IMG/VR virus record: IMGVR_UViG_3300023223_001004
Location: 1-52,622 of that record
Origin: a virus
Taxonomy: Duplodnaviria; Caudoviricetes
Direction: 5' to 3' (one strand)
Length of the DNA: 52,622 bases
Translations under genes and position numbers: made by a program
Shown here: positions 4,094 through 30,638 of the stretch, piece after piece
Layout of the letters: the number at the start of each line of letters is the position of its first letter
How positions within the stretch are numbered: position 1 is the first letter of the stretch
The notes under the pieces: generated by a model
Database searches by the model: none
The model's input: the letters and a program-made list of their open reading frames with translations, nothing else
Told to the model about the DNA's origin: nothing

Positions 4094-4133
4094 CACTGGT
4101 CTAATCTGTTTATCATAATTTATGTGCAATAGT
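4094..4133 (+). promoter_or_regulatory. FadR-like box promoter 1
   Basis: CACTGGTCTAATCTGTT (4094-4110), 17 nt spacer ending TGTGC, then AATAGT; upstream of ORF 4157. Confidence 0.85.
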
Positions 4134-4156
4134 TAAATCTCACAAACGAATAGGGA

Positions 4157-4552
4157 ATGAAAATGGACATAAACGATCTAACAATTGGTCAAGCTAAAGA
4201 ATTATCATCAATGTTTGGTGGTCAAAGTCAGTTGGTTTCGGCTGGAATTTTAATAGACGCTATCGGCAAGTATGTAATTGTGCGAAGCAGAAATGAAGGT
4301 ATTAATGCGGGAATATTAAAGGCTGCTGATGATACAGGATGTGTTTTATCTGATGCCAAAAGGGTTTGGTATCATAAGCCAAAGGATAGTAAAACTTCTT
4401 GGTATGAAGGAGTAGCTAAAAGTGGGTTGGATGATAGTTCTAAGATATCTTGCTCTGTGTCTGAAAAATATATCATTGAAGATTACTCGATAACCGTATG
4501 TACTGATGAAGCAAGGGAGTCGATTTGTGGGATGAAGTCTCATGAAAGTTAA
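4157..4552 (+). CDS. Small phage protein, DUF6948-like
   Basis: IGKYVIVRSRNEGINAGIL...AKRVWYH motif recalled from phage proteins that accompany G-D-G-Y-G repeats. Confidence 0.65.
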   Translation: MKMDINDLTIGQAKELSSMFGGQSQLVSAGILIDAIGKYVIVRSRNEGINAGILKAADDTGCVLSDAKRVWYHKPKDSKTSWYEGVAKSGLDDSSKISCSVSEKYIIEDYSITVCTDEARESICGMKSHES

Positions 4553-10210: not shown

Positions 10211-10903
10211 TTACTCATGCTTGACTTCTTCCTTTTTTGGCAACTGAGGTTCTTTAATTGGCATTACTGCTAAGATACATTCTGGCAAATAGCAGCTTTG
10301 AGAGTGTTCATTGAAACGAAAATAACCTTCACCATCATACCAGCAATGAATTACTTTACCTTTACAGGCAATCCAACAGAAAGATTCAATAGACTTCCAT
10401 TGAAAAGAATTAAGACTTTGCCAGGTTGGTGTTTTCATCGGCTGATTTCGCATTTTATAAGCCATTGAATTAATGTCAGTAAAATTATTATCACGAGTGA
10501 CTATGACTATCGATTCATCATCAATAATAGATTTAAACATGTAACGTGCAATTGGGTTATCATTAAATGTTGACTCATGTTTTTCACCAACACCTTTATG
10601 GTTGAAATCGCCATCTGTCCATAAGTAATCTTCAGTATTACTTATATAGCGTAAATCAACAGCCCAATCTGGTGCGCCTTTGAACAGCCATTCAGTGATA
10701 TTGTGATACCCACAACCTCTCAGACTTACATTGCTTTTAAAATTCTGAAGTACAGGTTGCTCTGAAAAAAACACTAAATCGTGGTGCCAAATTAAACTTT
10801 CTTCAGGAATATCTAATCCGCATACTGCATGCATAGCTTTTAACTGCTCGTGATTCTTAACTTCACTATAATGTATCCAATCACCATCTTTAAAACCGTT
10901 CAT
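10211..10903 (-). CDS. Hypothetical mosaic phage protein
   Basis: 230-aa ORF with GAPDWA motif; first gene after box promoter 3. Confidence 0.75.
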   Translation of the reverse strand: MNGFKDGDWIHYSEVKNHEQLKAMHAVCGLDIPEESLIWHHDLVFFSEQPVLQNFKSNVSLRGCGYHNITEWLFKGAPDWAVDLRYISNTEDYLWTDGDFNHKGVGEKHESTFNDNPIARYMFKSIIDDESIVIVTRDNNFTDINSMAYKMRNQPMKTPTWQSLNSFQWKSIESFCWIACKGKVIHCWYDGEGYFRFNEHSQSCYLPECILAVMPIKEPQLPKKEEVKHE

Positions 10904-10933: not shown

Positions 10934-10973
10934 ACAATAACCTGTTTAGTTCGATAAACAGATTAGACCAGTT
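10934..10973 (-). promoter_or_regulatory. FadR-like box promoter 3
   Basis: AACTGGTCTAATCTGTT (10973-10957), 17 nt, then TATTGT. Confidence 0.85.
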
Positions 10974-14961: not shown

Positions 14962-15001
14962 ATCATTACACATAAATTATGATGAACAGATTAGACCAGT
15001 T
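14962..15001 (-). promoter_or_regulatory. FadR-like box promoter 4
   Basis: AACTGGTCTAATCTGTT (15001-14985), 17 nt ending TGTGT, then AATGAT. Confidence 0.85.
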
Positions 15002-16662: not shown

Positions 16663-17126
16663 CTGCAGTGTTCATTTCCGCACATATAAGAATAATCTCC
16701 GTCATCGTGAGGTTTATCACAAACGAATTCTTCATTAATGCTTATGTATCTACTATCAGGGGTTACAGTATATTTCATATTACTAGCTGAGTTATACACT
16801 ACGTTGCCTTGAACTAATTTACGAGGTGGCGCTTCTAGAACAGACGATTGTTGGTATAGTTTTTTGAATTCCCCTGGAGGTTTACACTCAATACCTCTGA
16901 ATGTTACTGATATTTTATTTTCGTCGTAAAGTTGTTTTTCTGGTAAAGGTATCCACGAAATAATTTCAGAGATAGAGCCTATTATGTTATACCAACGCTT
17001 GAGGTCGTTATACCAGTAAACCTCACAAAAACCTTCTACTGAGTCTGTAAAATCGTTTTTATGTGTACCGTATCCTATAATATGCGTTCCGTCCTTTGGT
17101 GCCGTTTTTATATTTCTAAGCATCAT
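16650..17126 (-). CDS. DUF551-like domain protein
   Basis: IKTAPKDGTHII...SWIPLPE signature, Cys-rich tail. Confidence 0.7.
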   Translation of the reverse strand: MMLRNIKTAPKDGTHIIGYGTHKNDFTDSVEGFCEVYWYNDLKRWYNIIGSISEIISWIPLPEKQLYDENKISVTFRGIECKPPGEFKKLYQQSSVLEAPPRKLVQGNVVYNSASNMKYTVTPDSRYISINEEFVCDKPHDDGDYSYMCGNEHCRCRS

Positions 17127-17150: not shown

Positions 17151-17342
17151 TTAAATATCTATCTGTTTATTAATTTCAACTTCCCTGATATCTACAGATG
17201 TACGTCTTTCTCTATATTTATTTTCATATTCCTGTATAGCAATACGCATATCAGTATTATTATCAAAAACTCCTACCAACTTACTTTCACTAGTGCCATA
17301 TTGATCACTTATCTCTACAGTCATTGTCACAATTTTAAGCAT
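17151..17342 (-). CDS. Hypothetical protein
   Basis: First gene after box promoter 5. Confidence 0.65.
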   Translation of the reverse strand: MLKIVTMTVEISDQYGTSESKLVGVFDNNTDMRIAIQEYENKYRERRTSVDIREVEINKQIDI

Positions 17343-17370: not shown

Positions 17371-17410
17371 ATGATTACACAAAAATACCGATAGAGTGGA
17401 CAGACCAGTT
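17371..17410 (-). promoter_or_regulatory. FadR-like box promoter 5
   Basis: AACTGGTCTGTCCACTC (17410-17394), 17 nt ending TGTGT, then AATCAT. Confidence 0.78.
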
Positions 17411-17556: not shown

Positions 17557-18135
17557 TTACCGTTTTGTTTTCGGAGACTTTAATTTGTTTAAAGCCGTTA
17601 TAGCCTCAAGGGGAACCATATTGGCTTTTACTTTTGGTTTCGGTATGAACGGGGTGAATATTTTTGTGATTTTTTCTAACTGATTAATCGTTCTAACTGA
17701 TAAAAGAACATCACGTATATTTCTTGAAACTTCTCTTGCTTCAAAAATTATGTTTTTAGCTTTTTCTATTTCAACTTCTAAGTGCTCTTTAATGCCTGAA
17801 GTACCTATATGAGCATAAGCACAAACATAAGTTCGACTTAAATCAACATTTCTTTGGATTGATACAACCTCATGATCTTTAAACGGACACATAACCTTGT
17901 ACCCAGCTTCCCACTTACCATATAGATTGAAGTTCTGAGTTCCTGTTACACTTCCAATTGTTTCCATTTCGTTTTTCAACTTCATCACAGCAGCTGAAAA
18001 CCCGTTATCTTTTTTGGATAAATATTTATCACATTTTTCTTTAATAGTTTGATCAATAGCTGCCATTTCATCCTTAAATTGATCTCTCATCACCGATTCA
18101 AAAAGCTGCGATCTTATTTCTTTATTTAAATTCAT
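17557..18135 (-). CDS. Nmad5-like (nucleotide-modification-associated domain 5) protein
   Basis: MNLNKEIRSQL start and VLLSVRTINQLEK near the C-terminus recall this family; size fits. Confidence 0.55.
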   Translation of the reverse strand: MNLNKEIRSQLFESVMRDQFKDEMAAIDQTIKEKCDKYLSKKDNGFSAAVMKLKNEMETIGSVTGTQNFNLYGKWEAGYKVMCPFKDHEVVSIQRNVDLSRTYVCAYAHIGTSGIKEHLEVEIEKAKNIIFEAREVSRNIRDVLLSVRTINQLEKITKIFTPFIPKPKVKANMVPLEAITALNKLKSPKTKR

Positions 18136-18165
18136 TTTTTCATTTCCATTTATTTGTGAGATTTA

Positions 18166-18205
18166 ACTATTGCACAACTTTATTGATTAACAGATTAGAC
18201 CAGTG
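18166..18205 (-). promoter_or_regulatory. FadR-like box promoter 6
   Basis: CACTGGTCTAATCTGTT (18205-18189), 17 nt ending TGTGC, then AATAGT. Confidence 0.85.
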
Positions 18206-18209
18206 AAAA

Positions 18210-18662
18210 TTAATCAAATACAAAATGTTCGTTAACTAGATCCTCGGTTTCAGGGACTGAACGAAACGACTGCATGTCTGACTTATATCGCTCATCAAGC
18301 TCATTTAACTTCGTTTCTTTCATCACGGACAGAAATGCTCGATAAAATTCTATATCTCGTTCCATGTGGTTTATATGCCTAATTTTCATCATAATTAAGT
18401 TATCAAGTGCTTCTTGTTCTGTTTTAAAGGCAATTCGACTACCTGATTTATGTATTCTGTACACCCTGATATTCATTCGTTTTAGATTTTGAAGAATAGT
18501 TTTTGATTCATCCATAAGCGGATGTGCAAGAAACCCTTTATTAAAACCTTGTATGCAAAAGTGAAAACACTCTGTCTCATGGAATGAATGAAATTTATTG
18601 GTTATTATAGTTAACCCTGTTTCTTCTACGACTATTTTCATTTTGTAAAATATAACTTTCAT
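18210..18662 (-). CDS. Hypothetical phage protein
   Basis: First leftward gene after box promoter 7. Confidence 0.75.
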   Translation of the reverse strand: MKVIFYKMKIVVEETGLTIITNKFHSFHETECFHFCIQGFNKGFLAHPLMDESKTILQNLKRMNIRVYRIHKSGSRIAFKTEQEALDNLIMMKIRHINHMERDIEFYRAFLSVMKETKLNELDERYKSDMQSFRSVPETEDLVNEHFVFD

Positions 18663-18690: not shown

Positions 18691-18730
18691 AGTATTACAC
18701 AGGAATCATTCTAGACAGATTAGACCAGTT
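18691..18730 (-). promoter_or_regulatory. FadR-like box promoter 7 (leftward at the divergence point)
   Basis: AACTGGTCTAATCTGTC (18730-18714), 17 nt ending TGTGT, then AATACT. Confidence 0.85.
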
Positions 18731-18768
18731 GAATATTGTATAAATATCTAGTTGTGTAATAAATCAAC

Positions 18769-18800
18769 TTGAATTGGTTTATTTACTTGTGTATTATAAT
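18769..18800 (+). promoter_or_regulatory. Conventional sigma70 promoter for the cro-replication operon
   Basis: TTGAAT (18769-74), 17 nt, TATTAT (18792-97) with overlapping TATAAT; no FadR-like box in this register. Confidence 0.65.
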
Positions 18801-18826: not shown

Positions 18827-19021
18827 ATGAATAAAGAAAAAATGCTGAAAAAACTAAAAGGGTATATTTATTCAGAGTTTGGGAATGCTAAAAAGTACGC
18901 AGAACATAAGGGTATTTCAAGAGCTTTTGTGAGTGCTGTATTGACTGGTAAATCAGAACCCACTGAATCAATGCTATCTGACGCGAGTATATCTAAAGAA
19001 GTGATTTATTCGCAGATATAA
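18827..19021 (+). CDS. Cro-like HTH regulator
   Basis: AKKYAEHKGISRAFVSAVLTGKSEP HTH; first gene of the rightward operon. Confidence 0.8.
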   Translation: MNKEKMLKKLKGYIYSEFGNAKKYAEHKGISRAFVSAVLTGKSEPTESMLSDASISKEVIYSQI

Positions 19022-19075: not shown

Positions 19076-20029
19076 ATGACCAGCAAGAGAAAGTCATTTG
19101 TTTTGCATAAGGACAGCTTAGAGATATTAACTGACCTGACAGATGAGCAGGCGGGAAAGTTAATTAAGGCTATATATGCCTATCAAGCAAATCAAGAAAC
19201 AGAACTAGATCAAATCACAAAAATGGTGTTTCTCCCATTCAAAAACCAGTTTGTTAGGGATAATGAAAAATACTTAGAAACCTGCGAAAAACGCGCAGAA
19301 GCTGGCTCTAAGGGTGGTTCTGTATACGCCAAAGATCCAGGTATCGACAATCATGGTGAACTACAGCTTTATGTTATCAGGCTGTATAACAATGATGAGG
19401 ACTTTATAAAAATAGGAACCACATCCTCAAAAATAAATAGGAGATTTTCAGGCCCTAAAAACATGCCTTACAACTACGAAGTTTTGTATCAGATAATAAA
19501 TCAGGATACCTCACTGGCACTAGAGTCATATTTTCATAATTTACTAGATGAATTTTCATACTCTCCAATCATAAAATTCCCCGGCCATTTAGAGTGCTTC
19601 ACTAAGGAAGCAATCAAAGAACTTCTTTTAAATGAATCGTTTGCACAAGCAAAAGTTAGCAAACCAAAGCAAAGCAAAGCAAAACTAGCAGAGAGTAAAA
19701 GTGTTAGTGATAGTGATAATAAGAGTAATAAAGAACTAACTAATGATCGATTCTCTGAATTTTGGGATATGTACGATAAGAAAAAAGATTCTGTTAAATG
19801 CAAATCCAAGTTTGCAAAACTAACAAAACAAGAAATTGAATTGTTATTTGAAAAACTACCGGCCTACATAAACTCAACACCTGATAAGCAATTTCGTAAA
19901 AACCCATACTCATGGTTAAACGGTAAATGTTGGAATGATGAAATAATACAATCTAGTCTAGAAGATCATATCAATTATAAATCAGGTTTCCAAGATAGAG
20001 ACTATGGCAAGACGGGGGATTCGATATGA
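19076..20029 (+). CDS. Replication initiator (DUF6291-type N-terminus) with internal GIY-YIG/T5orf172-like domain
   Basis: RKSFVLH...LTDEQAGKLIKAI...KRAEAGSKGG N-terminus; LYVIRL...FIKIGTT insert; C-terminal FSEFWDMYDKK...PYSWLNGKCWNDE. Confidence 0.82.
   Translation: MTSKRKSFVLHKDSLEILTDLTDEQAGKLIKAIYAYQANQETELDQITKMVFLPFKNQFVRDNEKYLETCEKRAEAGSKGGSVYAKDPGIDNHGELQLYVIRLYNNDEDFIKIGTTSSKINRRFSGPKNMPYNYEVLYQIINQDTSLALESYFHNLLDEFSYSPIIKFPGHLECFTKEAIKELLLNESFAQAKVSKPKQSKAKLAESKSVSDSDNKSNKELTNDRFSEFWDMYDKKKDSVKCKSKFAKLTKQEIELLFEKLPAYINSTPDKQFRKNPYSWLNGKCWNDEIIQSSLEDHINYKSGFQDRDYGKTGDSI
19648..19692 (+). repeat. AGCAAA iteron-like repeats, putative replication origin
   Basis: AGCAAA at 19648, 19658, 19668, 19673, 19678 and AGCAGA at 19687, inside the initiator gene and followed by AT-rich sequence. 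Confidence 0.55.
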
Positions 20030-20553
20030 GCCGATTAATGATTACATCCGATTTACATTTGGGTCATAAAAATATTCATAAATTCAGAACTCAATTTTCT
20101 AGCCCTGAAGAACATCATGAAATTATATTTGAAAACCTAGCTACAAACATACACAAAAAAGATTCTGTTTATTTTCTTGGTGATATAGCTTTTACAAATG
20201 AATGGCTGGAAAGAATTGAAAAAATAAATTGCGTAAAGAAAACCTTAATACTTGGTAATCATGATACTGAAAAATTAAAAATGGGTGCAATCATGATGAC
20301 ATTTGATTCTATCCATTCATTGCAAAAAAGAAGAAATTGCTGGCTTAGCCACTGCCCTATACATACCAGTCAATTCAGGGGTAGTAAGCTAAATATACAT
20401 GGCCACTTGCATAATGATAAGGTTTTAGCTTTAAGTCCAATATGGGGTGATATGCGTCCAGATTTAACGTACTTCAATGCATGCGTAGAGCATACTGATT
20501 ATAAACCCATTAGTTTTTCTGAGATTATTGAAAGGAGAAATTCTTATGAGTAG
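20026..20553 (+). CDS. Calcineurin-like metallophosphoesterase
   Basis: DLHLGH, LGD, GNHD, SHCP and HGHLH motifs. Confidence 0.9.
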   Translation: MSRLMITSDLHLGHKNIHKFRTQFSSPEEHHEIIFENLATNIHKKDSVYFLGDIAFTNEWLERIEKINCVKKTLILGNHDTEKLKMGAIMMTFDSIHSLQKRRNCWLSHCPIHTSQFRGSKLNIHGHLHNDKVLALSPIWGDMRPDLTYFNACVEHTDYKPISFSEIIERRNSYE

Positions 20554-21046
20554 GTATGCAACCGTTAAATTCGATGATTACAATGTTGAATGTGAAGGTC
20601 AGAAAGTCGCCCTGCAAACCTGCAAGAACCTTAAACACAATGCCATTATGACTGGAAGTTACGGAACCGGCAAAACAATGCTGGCTAACTGTATCGCTAA
20701 CCAGAGTGATAAATACAATAAACCGATAGTTACCACCCTGGCTAAAATTGGCAGACAGTTCCGTTCAGCTTTCAAGTGTGATGATTTTACCGAAACAGAG
20801 TTGATGGATGATATTTCAACAACAGAATTACTTGTTATTGATGAAATCGGTGTGTCAAGAATTGGCGATTTCGAATACCGGTACTTAAATGAAATAATTG
20901 ATAATCGTTATGACAATAGATTACCAACAATAATCATATCAAATCTGACAATTGATCAACTTAAAACCGCCATAGGAGATAGGTTGATTGATCGATTAAA
21001 AGAAGATGGCGTGAGTATTACCTTTAAATGGGACAGTTACAGATGA
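20546..21046 (+). CDS. DnaC/IstB-like helicase loader ATPase
   Basis: Walker A GSYGTGKT, Walker B LLVIDEIG, IIDNRY, TIIISNL, DRLIDRL. Confidence 0.9.
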   Translation: MSRYATVKFDDYNVECEGQKVALQTCKNLKHNAIMTGSYGTGKTMLANCIANQSDKYNKPIVTTLAKIGRQFRSAFKCDDFTETELMDDISTTELLVIDEIGVSRIGDFEYRYLNEIIDNRYDNRLPTIIISNLTIDQLKTAIGDRLIDRLKEDGVSITFKWDSYR

Positions 21047-21279
21047 TACACGCTAAAAATCAAACACAACTTGAGGTGTGGATTGTAAACTATATATCTA
21101 CATATGTAGTTGGTGAACAATTACCACCAGAGCGTGAATTATCATACATGTTTGGCGCTGGCAGACAAAAAATTCGAGAGGTAATGATAAAGCTTTGTGT
21201 TAAAGATATTGTTGCTAAATCACACGGCAAACCTAGCGTCCTTACAAAAGATATATTTGAATCAGAAGAGCATTTTTAA
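21043..21279 (+). CDS. Stand-alone FadR-like (GntR family) winged-helix DNA-binding domain, 78 aa
   Basis: GEQLPPERELS...GAGRQKIREVM...SHGKPS aligns by eye with E. coli FadR [11 protein letters not shown]...[11 protein letters not shown]...QHGKPT (recalled); ATGA overlap with the loader stop codon. Confidence 0.88.
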   Translation: MIHAKNQTQLEVWIVNYISTYVVGEQLPPERELSYMFGAGRQKIREVMIKLCVKDIVAKSHGKPSVLTKDIFESEEHF

Positions 21280-21287
21280 TTTATTCT

Positions 21288-21327
21288 GACTGGTCTAATC
21301 TGTTTTCTACCAATTATAAATTATAGT
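21288..21327 (+). promoter_or_regulatory. FadR-like box promoter 8
   Basis: GACTGGTCTAATCTGTT (21288-21304), 17 nt, then TATAGT. Confidence 0.85.
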
Positions 21328-21350: not shown

Positions 21351-21758
21351 ATGTCAATAGTATATAGCGATACTCAGGATGATTGGTCAAATCAATACAA
21401 ATCAAAAGAAGATGCGGCAACGATGGTTCTTGAGATTATGGATGATGAAGAATTTCAAAAATGCAAAACAGTAGAAATATATCAGGGCGAAATGTCAAGA
21501 CAGGTTATAACTGACTTTTTTGATATCACACGAATCATTGAAACAATATCAGATGCAGCATATGAAAATTGTGATGATTATCTTGAAGAATATTTAACTG
21601 ATATTGGCAACGAAGATATCGTATTGCTTAAAACCTTAGTTGAATCTCAATTAATAAAGTGGGCCAATGAAACAGGAAATCAACCAAATACATACAAAGT
21701 AAAAGATGTAAGGCCTGTTTGTTTTAATGTTTCAGAACTCAAAAAGGAATTATTATGA
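21351..21758 (+). CDS. Hypothetical acidic phage protein
   Basis: AGGAG RBS; very Asp/Glu-rich. Confidence 0.78.
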   Translation: MSIVYSDTQDDWSNQYKSKEDAATMVLEIMDDEEFQKCKTVEIYQGEMSRQVITDFFDITRIIETISDAAYENCDDYLEEYLTDIGNEDIVLLKTLVESQLIKWANETGNQPNTYKVKDVRPVCFNVSELKKELL

Positions 21759-21973
21759 ACAACGATTTTGTATATAACCAAGTGTACAAGGGTTCAATTA
21801 AAAAAGGTGCGAGTCAGGCTGAATCCACTAACGCAGCCGTAAAAGCGGTTGATGATTATAAAAAGAACAAATTCAAAGGTAAGGTTTTCAACTTAATAGA
21901 ATCGGCCATAAAAGAAGCTGTAAAAATATCTAAAGTATACAATAAAACACGTTCTAAATTCAAAAGATGGTGA
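21755..21973 (+). CDS. Hypothetical basic protein
   Basis: ATGA overlap, AAGGA RBS. Confidence 0.7.
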   Translation: MNNDFVYNQVYKGSIKKGASQAESTNAAVKAVDDYKKNKFKGKVFNLIESAIKEAVKISKVYNKTRSKFKRW

Positions 21974-22011
21974 CTGGTCTAATCACTTAAATCAACATTG
22001 TTTGTTAAGGT
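21972..22011 (+). promoter_or_regulatory. FadR-like box promoter 9
   Basis: GACTGGTCTAATCACTT (21972-21988), 17 nt ending TGT, then TAAGGT. Confidence 0.78.
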
Positions 22012-22040: not shown

Positions 22041-22253
22041 ATGGAAAACAGATTAGAGAAATTCGCAGCAACTTGGAAGATGGAAACTACTATTTCAGAG
22101 TCTACTTCTGAACAATGTTACTCCACAGATGCAGTTGAAAACTTGAAAGCCGTAACAAGCAACTTCATGCACTACATGAGTCTGCAAGATGGCGGTGTTG
22201 AATGGCTTGAAGAAAGATTAATTTCAGCTAAAAAGTTAGCTCAATCATCTTAA
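22041..22253 (+). CDS. Hypothetical protein
   Basis: AGGGG RBS; first gene after box promoter 9. Confidence 0.7.
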   Translation: MENRLEKFAATWKMETTISESTSEQCYSTDAVENLKAVTSNFMHYMSLQDGGVEWLEERLISAKKLAQSS

Positions 22254-23474: not shown

Positions 23475-23514
23475 ATCTGGTCAAACCACTAATAACTAGT
23501 TTTTGAATTATTAT
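23475..23514 (+). promoter_or_regulatory. FadR-like box promoter 10 (dnaB)
   Basis: ATCTGGTCAAACCACTA (23475-23491), 17 nt, then TATTAT; more degenerate box. Confidence 0.68.
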
Positions 23515-23543: not shown

Positions 23544-24920
23544 ATGGAACATCAGAGAATACCGCCTCATGATGATTATGCTGAACAAGGCGTTTTAGGT
23601 TCAGCAATAATAGATCACAGATGTGTTGATGATATTTTAGAGCGAGTCAAGCCTGAATATTTCTATAACCACAATCACAAAACTGTATTTGAGGCTATTC
23701 AAAGTTTATTCAGAAAGAAAATGCCTATTGATATTATTACAATGGAAATTGAATTAAACGAATCTAACCTGGATGATGAAAATATATTTAGATTTGTTGC
23801 TGATTTAGCCAAAAAAACTCCCTCTTCTGCTAATTATTCCACTTACATAGAGATAGTTAAGTCAGATTACCTCGCCAGAGAAGCTATATATCACACACAG
23901 GACGCGCAAAACGATTTATATACAAAGCCAAGGGAAGAAAGAATAAGTTCGGCCATGACCCATTTAAGTACTATTGGCGATAGTATTGATGATGTTGTAA
24001 AAAAAGATATTCGTGTTAAGGCTGGACTTCAAAGATATGTTGAAAAAACAGAGCAACTTCTAAAAAGTAAAACAGGAATATCAGGAATAAGAACAGGGTT
24101 AAGAGACCTAGACAAAAAAATAGGTGGATTCGAAAAATCTGATTTGATTATTGAGGCTGGTCGTCCATCTATGGGTAAAACAACTCTGGCATTAAAGCAT
24201 GTAGTCACAGAGGCATTAAGCGGTGGCTACCCGTTTGTGTTTAGTATGGAAATGCCAGAAGAGCAATTATATAGAAAAGCAATATCTATAGTTGGCAGGA
24301 TAGATGGCAATAGGTTAAAGAATCCAAATAATCCAGACAACCCGATGACTGAAGAAGATTGGACAAATCACACTAATGCAGTTGGTAAATTGATAAGTAC
24401 GAATCTTGCGATAGATGATAGATCTAATCTGTCTCCAATGGAAATGCGTATTGCCATTAAAAAATACAAACGTGATCATGGTCATTTACCCACTTTAATC
24501 ATGGTTGATTATCTTCAGCTTATGAAATCAAGTAACAAAGAAAATAGAACTCAACAAATCAGTGAAATTAGCATGGGGTTAAAAGCCATAGCCAAGGATT
24601 TTGAAGTGCCTGTTATTGCATTGTCTCAGTTAAATAGAAGCCTGGAGAACCGCGCAGATAAGCGACCTATCTGTTCTGACTTACGTGAGTCTGGTCAGTT
24701 AGAGCAAGATGCAGATATTATTATATTTATTTACCGGGATGAGGTTTATAACGAGAATACGCCAAATAAAGGGTTGGCTGAGATTATTGTAGGCAAGCAA
24801 CGTAACGGGCCTCTTGGAATGATAGGTTCAGTATTTATGGGTCAGTATTCAGATTTTGGTGACATGTCTCATAGAGTATTTATGGAAGACGAGCAGCCAG
24901 GTAAAAAACCAAATTGGTAA
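23544..24920 (+). CDS. dnaB: Replicative DNA helicase
   Basis: PPHDDYAEQGVLG, AGRPSMGKT, MVDYLQLM, LSQLNR and DLRESGQLEQDAD motifs. Confidence 0.97.
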   Translation: MEHQRIPPHDDYAEQGVLGSAIIDHRCVDDILERVKPEYFYNHNHKTVFEAIQSLFRKKMPIDIITMEIELNESNLDDENIFRFVADLAKKTPSSANYSTYIEIVKSDYLAREAIYHTQDAQNDLYTKPREERISSAMTHLSTIGDSIDDVVKKDIRVKAGLQRYVEKTEQLLKSKTGISGIRTGLRDLDKKIGGFEKSDLIIEAGRPSMGKTTLALKHVVTEALSGGYPFVFSMEMPEEQLYRKAISIVGRIDGNRLKNPNNPDNPMTEEDWTNHTNAVGKLISTNLAIDDRSNLSPMEMRIAIKKYKRDHGHLPTLIMVDYLQLMKSSNKENRTQQISEISMGLKAIAKDFEVPVIALSQLNRSLENRADKRPICSDLRESGQLEQDADIIIFIYRDEVYNENTPNKGLAEIIVGKQRNGPLGMIGSVFMGQYSDFGDMSHRVFMEDEQPGKKPNW

Positions 24921-24922
24921 CT

Positions 24923-24962
24923 GACTGGTCAGAGCAGTGAATAGTTAAAACTGAGTTATAGT
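24923..24962 (+). promoter_or_regulatory. FadR-like box promoter 11
   Basis: GACTGGTCAGAGCAGTG (24923-24939), 17 nt, then TATAGT. Confidence 0.78.
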
Positions 24963-24977
24963 GAATAAAAATATTAA

Positions 24978-25517
24978 TTGGGAATGATTGTGAATTTTAA
25001 ATATTCAATAAACCATTTTGGTGGATTATGGCCTAGCGTGTTTGATTACATGTATTTCGATTCTCATAATGATGAGTTTGTTTTTGAAGAAGAGATTACG
25101 CCTAATCCTAGTGTATTAATATGCACTCGTAATGATTTTGAATCTGAAGTTGCGATTCAAAAAAAATTGTTAAATATATGGGATGGAAAAGATATACCAC
25201 CAATTTCTGTTGAATGTGAATACATGGTTGGTGGTGGTATTAATTGGTTTAAGTGCAAAGTCATAGCCCATGAAGATAACCTTATCTGGATAAATAATTT
25301 AGATACTGGTTCAAAGCCATTAAAAAGAATAACAGAAGTTAAATTCAGACAACTTAATCATAATAAAGATCGTGATGAGTGGGTTGAAAAGGCGTTACTT
25401 CTGGATGTGTACACGGATAGTCTCAATAATGGCGGTATGATGTCTAGAACAGATTACACAAAAGCCATTTATGACGCCCAAAAATCAGGCGAATTACCAC
25501 AAGTTAAGCAGGAATAA
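24978..25517 (+). CDS. Hypothetical phage protein
   Basis: WDGKDIPPISVECEY motif common in gammaproteobacterial phage ORFs; start uncertain. Confidence 0.72.
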   Translation: MGMIVNFKYSINHFGGLWPSVFDYMYFDSHNDEFVFEEEITPNPSVLICTRNDFESEVAIQKKLLNIWDGKDIPPISVECEYMVGGGINWFKCKVIAHEDNLIWINNLDTGSKPLKRITEVKFRQLNHNKDRDEWVEKALLLDVYTDSLNNGGMMSRTDYTKAIYDAQKSGELPQVKQE

Positions 25518-25838: not shown

Positions 25839-25878
25839 AACTGGTCTAATCTGTTTTTATGTATTTCACATATATACT
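25839..25878 (+). promoter_or_regulatory. FadR-like box promoter 12
   Basis: AACTGGTCTAATCTGTT (25839-25855), 17 nt, then TATACT. Confidence 0.85.
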
Positions 25879-25906
25879 CACCTTACTTGATAAAGGAGAC
25901 ATAAAA

Positions 25907-26248
25907 ATGATTATTCCAAATAATACAATATTTCTTGATTCATACATAGAAAAAGAAAAGTATATTGAATGTGCAATTACCAAAGCCAGGGAATGCTTAG
26001 AAAACGGTGAAGAATATAAATTTGAATACGCTGAAAAACAGGAAGTTAAAATATCTCTTGATAATATGGACGCCTGTATAGGTTTCTATCTTAGCAATAA
26101 TCATAATGATAGCCTATCACAGAGAATAAACGGGATTGTCTCTGCTAAAAATGACACCGAAATTTTAATTTTATCAAAAAATCTTAAGGACTGGTTCATC
26201 CAGTTAATCTCCGAAGAAATAGCTAATTTAGAATGGTTAGCTCAGTGA
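25907..26248 (+). CDS. Hypothetical protein
   Basis: Start moved to ATG 25907 (AAGGAG RBS); the track start overlaps the promoter. Confidence 0.72.
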   Translation: MIIPNNTIFLDSYIEKEKYIECAITKARECLENGEEYKFEYAEKQEVKISLDNMDACIGFYLSNNHNDSLSQRINGIVSAKNDTEILILSKNLKDWFIQLISEEIANLEWLAQ

Positions 26249-27087: not shown

Positions 27088-27109
27088 AGCCCTGTTATTT
27101 ATCAGGGCT
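27088..27109. terminator. Hairpin between convergent genes
   Basis: AGCCCTG / CAGGGCT inverted repeat. Confidence 0.55.
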
Positions 27110-27680
27110 GTGTTACATGCTTCCATCTTTTTTTTGTTTTTATCCCACTAACGGTAGATGCAGCTATATCATAATCTGAAGCGATTAATTTATGTTTTCT
27201 TTTGTCATTAAATATAGATTTTACTTGGTCTTTAGTAAGTTTTGACAGGGGTGAATCTTCACCTTTTCGACTTACGTGACGGTTTCTATTTACCATATCA
27301 TTTGAATTATCTTGATTGGTTCCAGCGTATAAATGGTCTGGATTAATGCATTTTCTGTTATCGCACTTATGCAAAACAAGAAGTTCGTTTTTTATTTCAC
27401 CTTTAAAGTGTTGGAAACTTAATCTGTGAGCACGGATTACTTTACCTTTGTAGCAAGCCATCCCGTACCCATCAACATTAATTACGCCAGCCCACTCCCA
27501 ACAACCAGAGTTTGAGATATTGTAATCAGATAAAACCTCACTTGCTGGTCTGCACTTGGCTGGCTTCCTTGGTATTAATCTACATTGTTTACAGTATGGG
27601 AATAATTTATCTTTTCTTAGGCTATCTTTGTGAAATTCTGATCTTGATTTTTTCTCGTTGCATTTTATGCAATGTTTCAT
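27102..27680 (-). CDS. HNH homing endonuclease with N-terminal zinc finger
   Basis: CIKC..CKQC, SGCWEW, RAHRLSF, VLHKCDNRKCINPDHL..GTNQDN, C-terminal HTH. Confidence 0.92.
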   Translation of the reverse strand: MKHCIKCNEKKSRSEFHKDSLRKDKLFPYCKQCRLIPRKPAKCRPASEVLSDYNISNSGCWEWAGVINVDGYGMACYKGKVIRAHRLSFQHFKGEIKNELLVLHKCDNRKCINPDHLYAGTNQDNSNDMVNRNRHVSRKGEDSPLSKLTKDQVKSIFNDKRKHKLIASDYDIAASTVSGIKTKKRWKHVTQP

Positions 27681-29437: not shown

Positions 29438-29941
29438 ATGCTTACTCAGGCAATGGTTAAAGAGTTATTCTCATACAACCCCGATACAGGCGTTGTCATA
29501 GAAAAAACAAGAAGAAGAGGGTGCTGGAAAAATATCGGGGATGAGACTGGTTATGCGCATGTTGATGGCAACACCATGTATTTGAGGGTTAGGGTAAATG
29601 GTAAACAATACTCGTTGCACAGATTAATTTGGCTGTACATGACAGGGAGATTACCCAATATCACTGACCATATTGACGGCAATGGCCTAAATAATAAGTG
29701 GGAAAACTTAAGAAGCACAGACCATTCTGGAAATGGCAAAAATAGAATGAAAAACTCAAACAATACCACTGGTATATGTGGAGTTACATGGCATAAGAAA
29801 TGTAAAAAGTATCAAGCACAAGCAGTGGTAAATAAGAAAACCATCTATCTTGGACTCTTTATTGATTTCTTTGAGGCTTGCTGTGCTAGAAAATCCGCTG
29901 AACTTAAATATAATTTTCACCCGAATCACGGGAAGAGATAA
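29438..29941 (+). CDS. HNH endonuclease with AP2-like C-terminus
   Basis: LHRLIWLYMTG...DHIDGNGLNNKWENLR...NTTGICGVTW...YLGLF. Confidence 0.92.
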   Translation: MLTQAMVKELFSYNPDTGVVIEKTRRRGCWKNIGDETGYAHVDGNTMYLRVRVNGKQYSLHRLIWLYMTGRLPNITDHIDGNGLNNKWENLRSTDHSGNGKNRMKNSNNTTGICGVTWHKKCKKYQAQAVVNKKTIYLGLFIDFFEACCARKSAELKYNFHPNHGKR

Positions 29942-29979
29942 CTGGTCTAATCTGTTAATTAATATTCTTGTGTAATAAT
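29940..29979 (+). promoter_or_regulatory. FadR-like box promoter 13 (recT operon)
   Basis: AACTGGTCTAATCTGTT (29940-29956), 17 nt ending TGTGT, then AATAAT. Confidence 0.85.
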
Positions 29980-30008: not shown

Positions 30009-30638
30009 ATGAATGGTTTTTATTTAAGAAGTCGCCACGGTGATTGTGGTGATAATGTAATGTTTCACAATAAAAATGGTCATGGATACGGCACTGATTT
30101 GGATAAATTGCACGTATTTTCTTTAAAGGAAGCACAGAAGCAATTAGATTGGGATATAGGAAATCTTCCGCTTTTAAAGTCTGCCGTTGATAATGCGTCA
30201 ATTAGAGCTATTAACCATCAATATCTGGATAAAAATGAAAACAAAAAATATGAAGGGGATGAATATATTGTCCAAATAAAAGGTTTTCACAATGGTAATG
30301 ATATAGCTTTTATTGTTTTGGGAGGTAAAACTTTTAATTACTCTGAAGCCACAATACTTTCAAAAATAGAAACTGGGTCATTTCCAGATAGTACCCACTT
30401 TATAATTTGGAATAAATTATATTTGGATACATTATCAAGGCGTACATTCCAACCTGAAAATATCAATACTAGAAAAATGATTACATCTCCCGGGATTAAA
30501 TATAAAAAACCAAGAAATCGAGAAACAACCGGGAAAGTTAGATGGAATTGCCATTGTTGCGGAAAGATTAATTGGCAGTTCAACCCTTATGATTTCGAAG
30601 GGTGTGTTGACATATATTGTGATGAATACAGATATTAA
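30009..30638 (+). CDS. Hypothetical phage protein with C-terminal Cys cluster
   Basis: GYGTDLDKLHVFS motif; CHCCGK...C....C. Confidence 0.75.
   Translation: MNGFYLRSRHGDCGDNVMFHNKNGHGYGTDLDKLHVFSLKEAQKQLDWDIGNLPLLKSAVDNASIRAINHQYLDKNENKKYEGDEYIVQIKGFHNGNDIAFIVLGGKTFNYSEATILSKIETGSFPDSTHFIIWNKLYLDTLSRRTFQPENINTRKMITSPGIKYKKPRNRETTGKVRWNCHCCGKINWQFNPYDFEGCVDIYCDEYRY

Follow-up and report, generated by a model that had tools for sequence, protein, structure and literature searches.

A phage-encoded stand-alone relative of the FadR DNA-binding domain and FadR-type boxes in predicted phage promoters

What would a phage gain from a protein that resembles only the DNA-binding part of the acyl-CoA-responsive regulator FadR, and what reads the box that is repeated around its genome and lies just behind the gene of this protein? 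This question is raised by a marine-type phage, IMG/VR record IMGVR_UViG_3300023223_001004. The record is complete (52,622 bp, 37% G+C, direct terminal repeats at its ends), was analysed over its whole length and is called the window below. The protein in question, mini-FadR, has 78 amino acids (aa), and the box is the 16-mer ACTGGTCTAATCTGTT. The answer that we favour, and to which we give roughly an even chance, is that mini-FadR serves as a ligand-blind surrogate or reinforcer of host FadR at the promoters carrying this box.

21043..21279, + strand: mini-FadR gene; 78-aa stand-alone GntR/FadR-type winged helix-turn-helix protein with the C-terminal tail KDIFESEEHF and no effector domain

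The translation of 21043-21279 (+) is exactly the one given in the first-pass annotation, which had described the product, from the DNA letters alone, as a FadR that kept its DNA-binding domain and lost its acyl-CoA sensor. Pfam GntR (PF00392) matches residues 20-64 with 33.9 bits, above the 27-bit gathering cut-off, and no other Pfam domain matches. The C-terminal domain of FadR, FadR_C (PF07840), was found neither in mini-FadR nor in any of the six frames of the 52.6-kb phage, and the control E. coli genome was matched; the reported absence of the dimerisation and acyl-CoA-binding domain therefore holds for the protein and for the phage as a whole. The FadR equivalog models TIGR02812 and NF003444 align with mini-FadR through the N-terminal domain alone and stay far from their cut-offs (28.5 bits versus 249.2 and 27.5 versus 189, respectively). 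Since 28.5 bits compares with an equivalog cut-off of 249, mini-FadR is not a FadR orthologue.

When 1.84 billion representatives were searched exhaustively with HMMER, 22 proteins were found at E <= 0.001. Six short relatives of mini-FadR, 71-78 aa in length, were obtained (P0002, with 54% identity, P0007, P0011, P0013, P0017 and P0019). Four longer proteins of 153-168 aa (P0003, P0005, P0008 and P0021) carry two FadR-like winged-helix domains in tandem and no effector domain, and could be called single-chain 'pseudo-dimers'; two of them bear the source label 'DNA-binding FadR family transcriptional regulator'. These tandem relatives suggest that a pair of domains is the working unit. A word-index protein search near the length of mini-FadR recovered the query alone, and viral-contig locus searches with mini-FadR, P0002 and P0017 found nothing. 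Comparison of mini-FadR with phages by tblastn gave three weak matches, the useful one being in Alteromonas phage P24. A metagenome scan with P0002 yielded two full-length GntR genes of high-G+C bacteria, which were judged irrelevant.

The seven-member family profile assigns these proteins more clearly than the lone mini-FadR, which cannot separate FadR from PdhR and NanR. Searched against the PDB, the profile places six FadR sequences on top (3.5e-13 to 1.4e-12, about 51-52 bits), followed by PdhR with 41 bits and by all others with 36 bits or less. Both NCBIfam FadR models match all seven family members and give the best E-value of all models (5.8e-12); GlcC is the only other model to match all seven. 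The AlphaFold2 (AF2) model of mini-FadR, with a mean predicted local distance difference test score (pLDDT) of 81.7, contains three helices and a two-strand wing, with a low-confidence tail. Comparison of this model with known structures, proposed earlier as a check on the identification, put FadR first: the four best Foldseek matches in the PDB are FadR, with a small margin over other GntR domains, and the top one is the V. cholerae FadR-DNA complex (root-mean-square deviation of 1.4 Å over 65 columns, 32% identity). Prediction of a homodimer from two copies of mini-FadR and the family alignment gave a score of 0.00, which counts neither for nor against dimerisation.

A maximum-likelihood tree was built from 49 domains and 91 columns, comprising 10 mini proteins, 8 tandem halves, 3 FadR, 22 GntR paralogues drawn from two FadR-encoding genomes (Bowmanella and Colwellia) and 6 full-length HMMER matches. 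All minis, all tandem halves and FadR fall into one group (ultrafast bootstrap 86, Shimodaira-Hasegawa-like approximate likelihood ratio test 73), with none of the 22 paralogues inside. The phylogeny suggested in the first-pass annotation thus groups the minis with FadR, but with moderate support. FadR lies on a long branch within this group, so that a recent capture of a host fadR does not account for the minis. According to passages of PMC4259882 and PMC4537474, FadR contacts DNA through seven residues, R35, T44, R45, T46, T47, R49 and H65. Four of them, R35, R45, R49 and H65, are kept in mini-FadR, and the counterparts expected for R35, R45 and H65 are indeed present as R31, R41 and H61. 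R-T-T is retained in the relatives P0007, P24 and G002, the last from another box-bearing phage described below. The HGK wing is found in all seven short proteins and HGKP in five; HGKP occurs in all three FadR sequences and in none of the 22 other GntR paralogues of the two FadR-encoding genomes, in agreement with its earlier use as a mark of FadR proper.

Behind the wing, six of the seven short proteins have an acidic C-terminal stretch that closes with an aromatic residue, (K/R)D...SEEHF or a close variant, whereas P0019 ends in EEET. The window copy of the tail is encoded at 21250-21279, and the minis of P24, G002 and G003 lack a tail of the SEEHF type. Our guess is that this tail contacts RNA polymerase or another partner. 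Residues F74 and W75 of FadR pack against W60 (passage in PMC4259882). The KDIF segment after the wing of mini-FadR appears to line up with N73-F74-W75 of FadR, and the protein would end about where the FadR linker does; this pairing was read by eye, at a place where the MAFFT alignment has gaps. Collectively, the profiles, the tree and the model support the assignment of mini-FadR, predicted from its sequence, as a DNA-binding-domain-only relative of FadR that corresponds roughly to FadR residues 1-80.

Besides seven exact copies of the box, the window has two copies that differ from it at one and at two positions, respectively, and two in which the right half is degenerate. This makes 11 promoter-associated boxes, with a FadR-like palindrome upstream of dnaB as a possible twelfth, so that the 13 promoters counted at first are reduced. 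Both forms of the motif are clearly enriched: the 19-mer with up to three mismatches has 8 matches versus 0.02 expected, and ACTGGTC has 16 versus 3.6. Each of the 11 boxes is on the strand of the gene behind it and 46-56 nucleotides (nt) upstream of the start codon, which has a ribosome-binding site, and every structural (late) gene cluster of the window is free of boxes. The box behind mini-FadR starts with ACTGGTC at 21289, which leaves 9 nt after the stop codon ending at 21279 (6 nt to the 19-mer at 21286) instead of the 8 bp first reported. The sites, with the putative promoters to which they belong, are as follows.

4095..4110, + strand: exact box, followed after 12 nt by TGTGCAATAGT; putative promoter of gene 4157-4552
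10957..10972, - strand: exact box; putative promoter of gene 10211-10903
14985..15000, - strand: exact box, followed after 12 nt by TGTGTAATGAT
17394..17409, - strand: box with degenerate right half, ACTGGTCTGTCCACTC, followed after 12 nt by TGTGTAATCAT; putative promoter of gene 17151-17342
18189..18204, - strand: exact box, followed after 12 nt by TGTGCAATAGT; putative promoter of gene 17557-18135
18714..18729, - strand: box with one mismatch (…TGTC), followed after 12 nt by TGTGTAATACT; putative promoter of gene 18210-18662, abutting the divergent + strand early promoter region
21289..21304, + strand: exact box ACTGGTCTAATCTGTT, 9 nt past the mini-FadR stop; putative promoter of gene 21351-21758
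21973..21988, + strand: box with two mismatches, ACTGGTCTAATCACTT; putative promoter of gene 22041-22253
23476..23491, + strand: FadR-like palindrome TCTGGTCAAACCACTA upstream of the DnaB-like helicase gene 23544-24920; possible twelfth site
24924..24939, + strand: box with degenerate right half, ACTGGTCAGAGCAGTG; putative promoter of gene 24978-25517
25840..25855, + strand: exact box; putative promoter of gene 25859-26248 or of the next start
29941..29956, + strand: exact box, followed after 12 nt by TGTGTAATAAT; putative promoter of gene 30009-30638

The FadR site is given in a section of the review PMC9329746 as the 17-bp palindrome aaCTGGTCnGACC(T/A)Gtt, and the box matches this consensus at 13 of the 15 specified positions, the misses being G10 to A and C12 to T. 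In six of the 11 window promoters the box is followed, after exactly 12 nt, by TGTG(C/T)AATnnT. This motif can be read as an extended -10 element (TG-n-AATnnT), in which case the -10 hexamer would lie 17 nt past the box and the box itself would cover about -45 to -30. According to the same section of PMC9329746, FadR activates fabA and fabB and represses the fad genes from sites at -10/+1. In E. coli fabA, the site ACTGATCGGACTTGTT, which is also contained in an oligonucleotide listed in a passage of PMC4537474, is followed by 18 nt and then by TATCCT. The box promoters would thus fit the fabA-type (class II-like) layout, with an operator near -40, upstream of the -10 and without a separate -35. 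Since this geometry is close to that of fabA (17 versus 18 nt to the -10), it argues for activation. Two other readings of the box were considered and rejected. A sigma-54 promoter has the motif GG-N10-GC, whereas only 7 nt separate TGG from TGTT in the box and an extended -10 lies 12 nt downstream; the PsrA operator was dismissed on comparison of the sequence with the generally known PsrA motif.

If the box is a FadR operator, it should also be met in bacterial chromosomes. An exact scan for the 16-mer, with one genome per species, gave 81 stretches among the matches listed, of which 80 loci were readable; by our own arithmetic, about 280 chance occurrences of a 16-mer are expected in 596 Gb versus these 81 listed. 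In at least 11 cases (11 of the 80 loci read) the 16-mer lies 10-90 nt upstream of a fadH orthologue, namely in Bowmanella (2), Lacimicrobium (2), Aliikangiella (3), metagenome-assembled genomes (MAGs) of Kangiellaceae (3) and one gamma-proteobacterial MAG. The downstream gene shows 61% identity, over its full length, to E. coli fadH, coding for 2,4-dienoyl-CoA reductase. The exact 16-mer also precedes FadD in one Alteromonadaceae MAG (947.9 bits, NCBIfam cut-off 884) and FadL in one Enterobacteriaceae MAG (672.5 bits, cut-off 585). FadR itself scores above its equivalog cut-off in all five genomes checked (329-377 bits versus 249), these being four fadH-locus carriers and one Colwellia MAG, with the FadD and FadL MAGs outside this check. 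Since the identical 16-mer precedes fadH, fadD and fadL, and all five checked carriers encode FadR, these sequence data support the box as a FadR-type operator. Furthermore, E. coli, Bowmanella and Colwellia have almost the same FadR DNA-binding domain, which would explain how one operator can serve phages of different hosts.

The bacterial copies differ from the phage ones in their placement. In the fadH promoters of Kangiellaceae the box runs, by our own reading, into a TATAA(A/C) motif, and 10 nt separate its end from the ATG in those of Bowmanella and Lacimicrobium; judged from these promoter sequences, the fadH boxes are in repressing positions. The region upstream of fadH in E. coli K-12 (L177, 205-240) reads AACTCATCCGACCACAT and resembles the variants ACTGGTC(A/G)(G/T)ACCACAT of two phage records, G008 and G009.

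The box is also shared by other phages. An exact scan of IMG/VR for the 16-mer gave 29 stretches, many of them promoter-like, and 12 records were taken whole. Two groups are seen, G001-G005 with G010-G012 and G008 with G009, of about 44% and 39% G+C, each record having 3-9 box sites before genes; G006 and G007 have one box each. Beside the exact 16-mer, the phages contain the variants ACTGGTC(A/G)GAGTTGTT, ACTGGTCAGACCTCTT and ACTGGTCAGACCACAT. Scanning 14 phage records for ACTGGTC with a ribosome site and a start codon gave 48 non-redundant sites from 13 of them (the single site of P24 is too far from its start codon); at least three of the 48 are probably chance matches inside genes. The right half of these sites, which was not selected for, agrees with the FadR consensus at seven of eight positions, with position 11 as the exception; A occupies position 10 in 46 of the 48 sites, G position 14 in 39, and T positions 15 and 16 in 41 and 40. 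The left half is invariant and the right half varies, in agreement with the better conservation of the left half-site noticed earlier.

Such recurrence raises the possibility that the boxes are read by something else, a phage factor or a feature of host polymerase, with mini-FadR regulating only host genes or itself and the likeness of the box to a FadR site being a by-product of cassette exchange. The exact non-consensus core TAATC common to phages of 37% and 44% G+C, the sharing of whole promoter-plus-leader cassettes by otherwise unrelated phages and the overlap of the 3' end of the box with the -35 position could all be taken in this sense. We nevertheless consider this explanation highly improbable: bacteria have this 16-mer in front of fadH, fadD and fadL, the variant phage boxes ACTGGTCAGACCTCTT and ACTGGTCAGACCACAT drift towards the FadR palindrome, and no shared phage protein was found by blastp. 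The cassettes consist of the box, the extended -10 and a leader with ...TAGTTAAATC..ACTTAAACGAAAGG..., and are located in the window at 4095-4160 and 18140-18204(-), in G006 at 29717(-), in G007 at 17110(+) and in L131, a Methylomarinum MAG. Their sequences suggest that they are mobile promoter modules. A further bacterial match, L086 (PAPM01000040.1, a 'Pseudomonadales bacterium' MAG), has the same length as G012, 27,754 bp, with the box at 4496 and the same following sequence in both; it is probably a phage contig inside a bacterial MAG.

Does the box require mini-FadR? The association of gene and box was surveyed with the family profile and with Pfam GntR in eight complete box-bearing phage genomes and six fragments. 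Only three of the eight complete genomes, the window, G002 and G003, have mini-FadR. No GntR-like open reading frame (ORF) was detected in the other five, G001, G006, G007, G010 and G011, and the six fragments are also without mini-FadR. These mini-less genomes still possess boxes, four exact and five variant in G001, six each in G010 and G011 and one each in G006 and G007, and G001, G010 and G011 carry unrelated genes at the place where G002 and G003 have mini-FadR. On the other hand, a box lies no more than about 210 nt from the gene in all four mini-FadR phages, P24 included: in the window it follows the stop by 9 nt, in G003 it precedes the start by 48 nt, in G002 it is one short ORF upstream, and in P24, which has no other such box in 46.9 kb, it is 126 nt upstream. 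P24 is annotated in GenBank as a cultured temperate phage of A. macleodii. The expected co-occurrence was thus confirmed in one direction only, from gene to box. A common phage-encoded reader was not found either: by blastp of the window ORFs against five box phages, no protein is present in all of G001-G003, remote homologues being beyond the scope of this search.

These distributions bear on the two models of the first-pass annotation. In the former, mini-FadR would be a dedicated and necessary activator of the box promoters, a middle-gene factor like MotA, with host FadR uninvolved. The placement of mini-FadR in a box-less early operon, with a + strand box following its stop codon, would suit such a role, as would an invariant left half-site with a variable right half, expected of a monomeric reader, and the tandem two-domain proteins of the same clade, which work without an effector domain. 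But the lack of any GntR-like ORF in five of eight complete box-bearing genomes weakens this model, which cannot be a general rule; in addition, no window protein is common to all of G001-G003, and the identical 16-mer is a chromosomal fad-gene operator in bacteria, of which the five checked encode FadR. We therefore hold this explanation to be quite improbable. Since use of the box needs no phage mini-FadR, as the five complete box phages without it indicate, host FadR is the likeliest general reader. The latter model, in which host FadR reads the promoters and the mini-protein modulates this, fits better with boxes in five genomes devoid of a GntR-like protein, although the binding itself is still predicted from sequence.

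The genes around mini-FadR indicate when it could be made. The + strand block beginning at 18827 encodes, in order, a small helix-turn-helix protein, a replication-initiator-like protein, a phosphoesterase, a helicase loader and, as the last gene, mini-FadR. The loader gene (Pfam IstB_IS21, 2.3e-13; PHROG DnaC-like loader, 2e-47) overlaps the mini-FadR start by an ATGA, so that the coupling described earlier is confirmed. For mini-FadR, the start at 21043 is preferred to the upstream ATG at 21028 because the relative P0002 also begins with MINAK in the family alignment. The replication-initiator-like protein (19076-20029) has an N-terminal DUF6291, a T5orf172/GIY-YIG-like middle and a C-terminal part matching the PHROG 'replication initiation protein'. 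Upstream of the block, ordinary -35/-10 matches are found and no box in an activating position.

20528..21046, + strand: DnaC/IstB-like helicase loader gene, whose TGA stop overlaps the mini-FadR ATG by 4 nt (ATGA)
18769..18797, + strand: box-less sigma-70-like promoter candidate before the mini-FadR operon, TTGAAT-17-TATTAT, by consensus match only
18731-18765, + strand: second early promoter candidate, TTGAAT followed by TGTGTAATAAAT

What was observed directly is the domain content and family affinity of the protein, the identity of the operator, the geometry of the promoters and the occurrence of gene and box across genomes; from this we infer the binder and the sign of its effect as follows. 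The phage would have copied FadR operators into at least 11 early/middle promoters, at a fabA-like position rather than at -10/+1. The host FadR dimer, when free of acyl-CoA, would bind the boxes and switch these promoters on, and early/middle transcription of the phage would thereby be tied to the lipid status of the host. Mini-FadR would be expressed from the box-less early operon along with the replication genes. It would recognise these boxes too, chiefly by their perfect left half-site CTGGTC, but would not sense acyl-CoA. The box promoters, and probably host FadR targets as well, would then be kept 'FadR-bound' by mini-FadR whatever the lipid status.

The same arrangement could have the opposite sign. 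Mini-FadR could be an antagonist, which occupies boxes or left half-sites without activating and competes with host FadR; it would then shut the box promoters, as an early-to-late switch or by negative feedback, and disturb host fad/fab control. Indeed, the mini gene is the first after a box promoter in G003 and P24 and the second ORF in G002, the usual layout of negative autoregulation. A protein without the dimerisation and effector domain may also bind without the activating contacts of FadR, and mini-FadR is an accessory, found in three of the eight complete box phages. In the window, however, the gene would be made early, ahead of the 11 promoters that it should silence, those of replication and recombination genes included, and the acidic, aromatic-ended tail, present in six of seven members of the family, resembles a surface for contacts more than a useless appendage. 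We regard the antagonist as rather unlikely.

Several observations weigh against mini-FadR as a surrogate of host FadR, and against the role of FadR in general. As a single sequence, mini-FadR scores slightly better with PdhR (5.5e-7) and NanR (6.8e-7) than with FadR (1.1e-6), so that one protein leaves the subfamily unsettled, and a PDB sequence search with it gives a similar order. The tree node joining FadR and the minis has moderate support over its 91 columns. Three of the seven FadR contacts are changed in mini-FadR (T44G, T46Q and T47K), and its specificity could differ. The FadR dimer is held by the C-terminal domain that is missing here, and binding by a single domain may be weak. In its right half, the commonest box has two mismatches to the consensus, both at key positions, and unrelated phages contain the same non-consensus TAATC, which could indicate a reader other than canonical FadR. 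Two Colwellia-type boxes, in L074 (Cognaticolwellia) and L121 (Colwellia), are exact copies flanked by divergent genes that encode an MBL-fold hydrolase and an EamA-family transporter, not beside fad genes; on their position, these genes may belong to the FadR targets that have escaped recognition. Both the -10 assignments and the 'activating position' of the boxes that follows from them are readings of sequence. Matches to sigma-70 promoters, the early promoter included, are not above chance in the AT-rich early stretch (17 found versus 22.6 expected). Finally, that the host of the window phage possesses FadR is something that we infer.

Other genes of the window mark it as a contractile-tail phage, with tail sheath, tape measure, baseplate, portal, large terminase and protease. 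In the early region, HNH_3 endonuclease genes at 27102-27680(-) and 29438-29941(+) lie beside NinG and NinB homologues and a RecT-like gene. Searches with the large terminase TerL and with DnaB found distant relatives only, the best DnaB match being in Alteromonas phage P24 (43%), and no DNA nearly identical to the window was found among GenBank phages.

Taken more widely, these data allow a picture that we put forward tentatively and with slightly less than even confidence: a guild of marine gamma-proteobacterial phages would use the FadR operator as a standard early/middle promoter element, so that infection is gated by the acyl-CoA pool, and the sensor-less mini-FadR of a subset would override this gate and lock the host fad/fab regulon in a 'no fatty acid' state. 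It is known that phages use general host factors or carry copies of host regulators. A full-text literature search found the 16-mer in no paper of the collection searched, and among the titles and abstracts listed for FadR and phages there were neither phage promoters with FadR operators nor a natural FadR consisting of the DNA-binding domain alone. Provided that our reading is correct, phage gene expression is joined to host lipid metabolism through a well-understood ligand-controlled switch, and a natural, ligand-blind minimal FadR exists. The arrangement is specific and widespread in uncultured marine phages, and a FadR-box promoter would imply a FadR-bearing gamma-proteobacterial host, a hint of the host range of many phage contigs that come from uncultured phages. 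The reading can be tested directly in E. coli, since these hosts have nearly identical FadR DNA-binding domains.

Compared with gamma-proteobacterial FadR (E. coli and Vibrio; PDB 1hw1/1h9t and 4p9u), mini-FadR has the same winged-helix fold, the HGKP wing and R35, R45, R49 and H65, and the boxes share with fabA the operator type CTGGTCnGACC(T/A)G and a site 17-18 bp upstream of the -10. It differs in its length (78 versus 239 aa), its identity of about 32%, the lack of an acyl-CoA-binding/dimerisation domain, the replacement of T44, T46 and T47 and the extra acidic tail SEEHF. A parallel among phage homologues of host transcription factors that read host-type sites is VqmA of vibriophage VP882, which has retained its ligand-binding domain and responds to a host signal. 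Both are phage copies of a host regulator able to act on phage and host promoters, whereas mini-FadR, with its sensor domain deleted, would be deaf to the signal. In T4 middle promoters of the MotA type, a sigma-70 -10 is preceded by a conserved box that takes the place of the -35. The box promoters resemble them in the fixed distance of the box from a good (extended) -10, the absence of a -35 and the use for many early/middle genes; unlike the MotA box, the present one is the operator of a host regulator and occurs in phages without a cognate phage factor. Isolated GntR domains of the same size and fold are known from structures, namely the PdhR 1-75 fragment (5kvr) and the DNA-binding domains of AraR (4egy) and LutR (8pqm). 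These are laboratory truncations, whereas mini-FadR is the product of a natural gene, with natural relatives of 71-78 aa and tandem forms.

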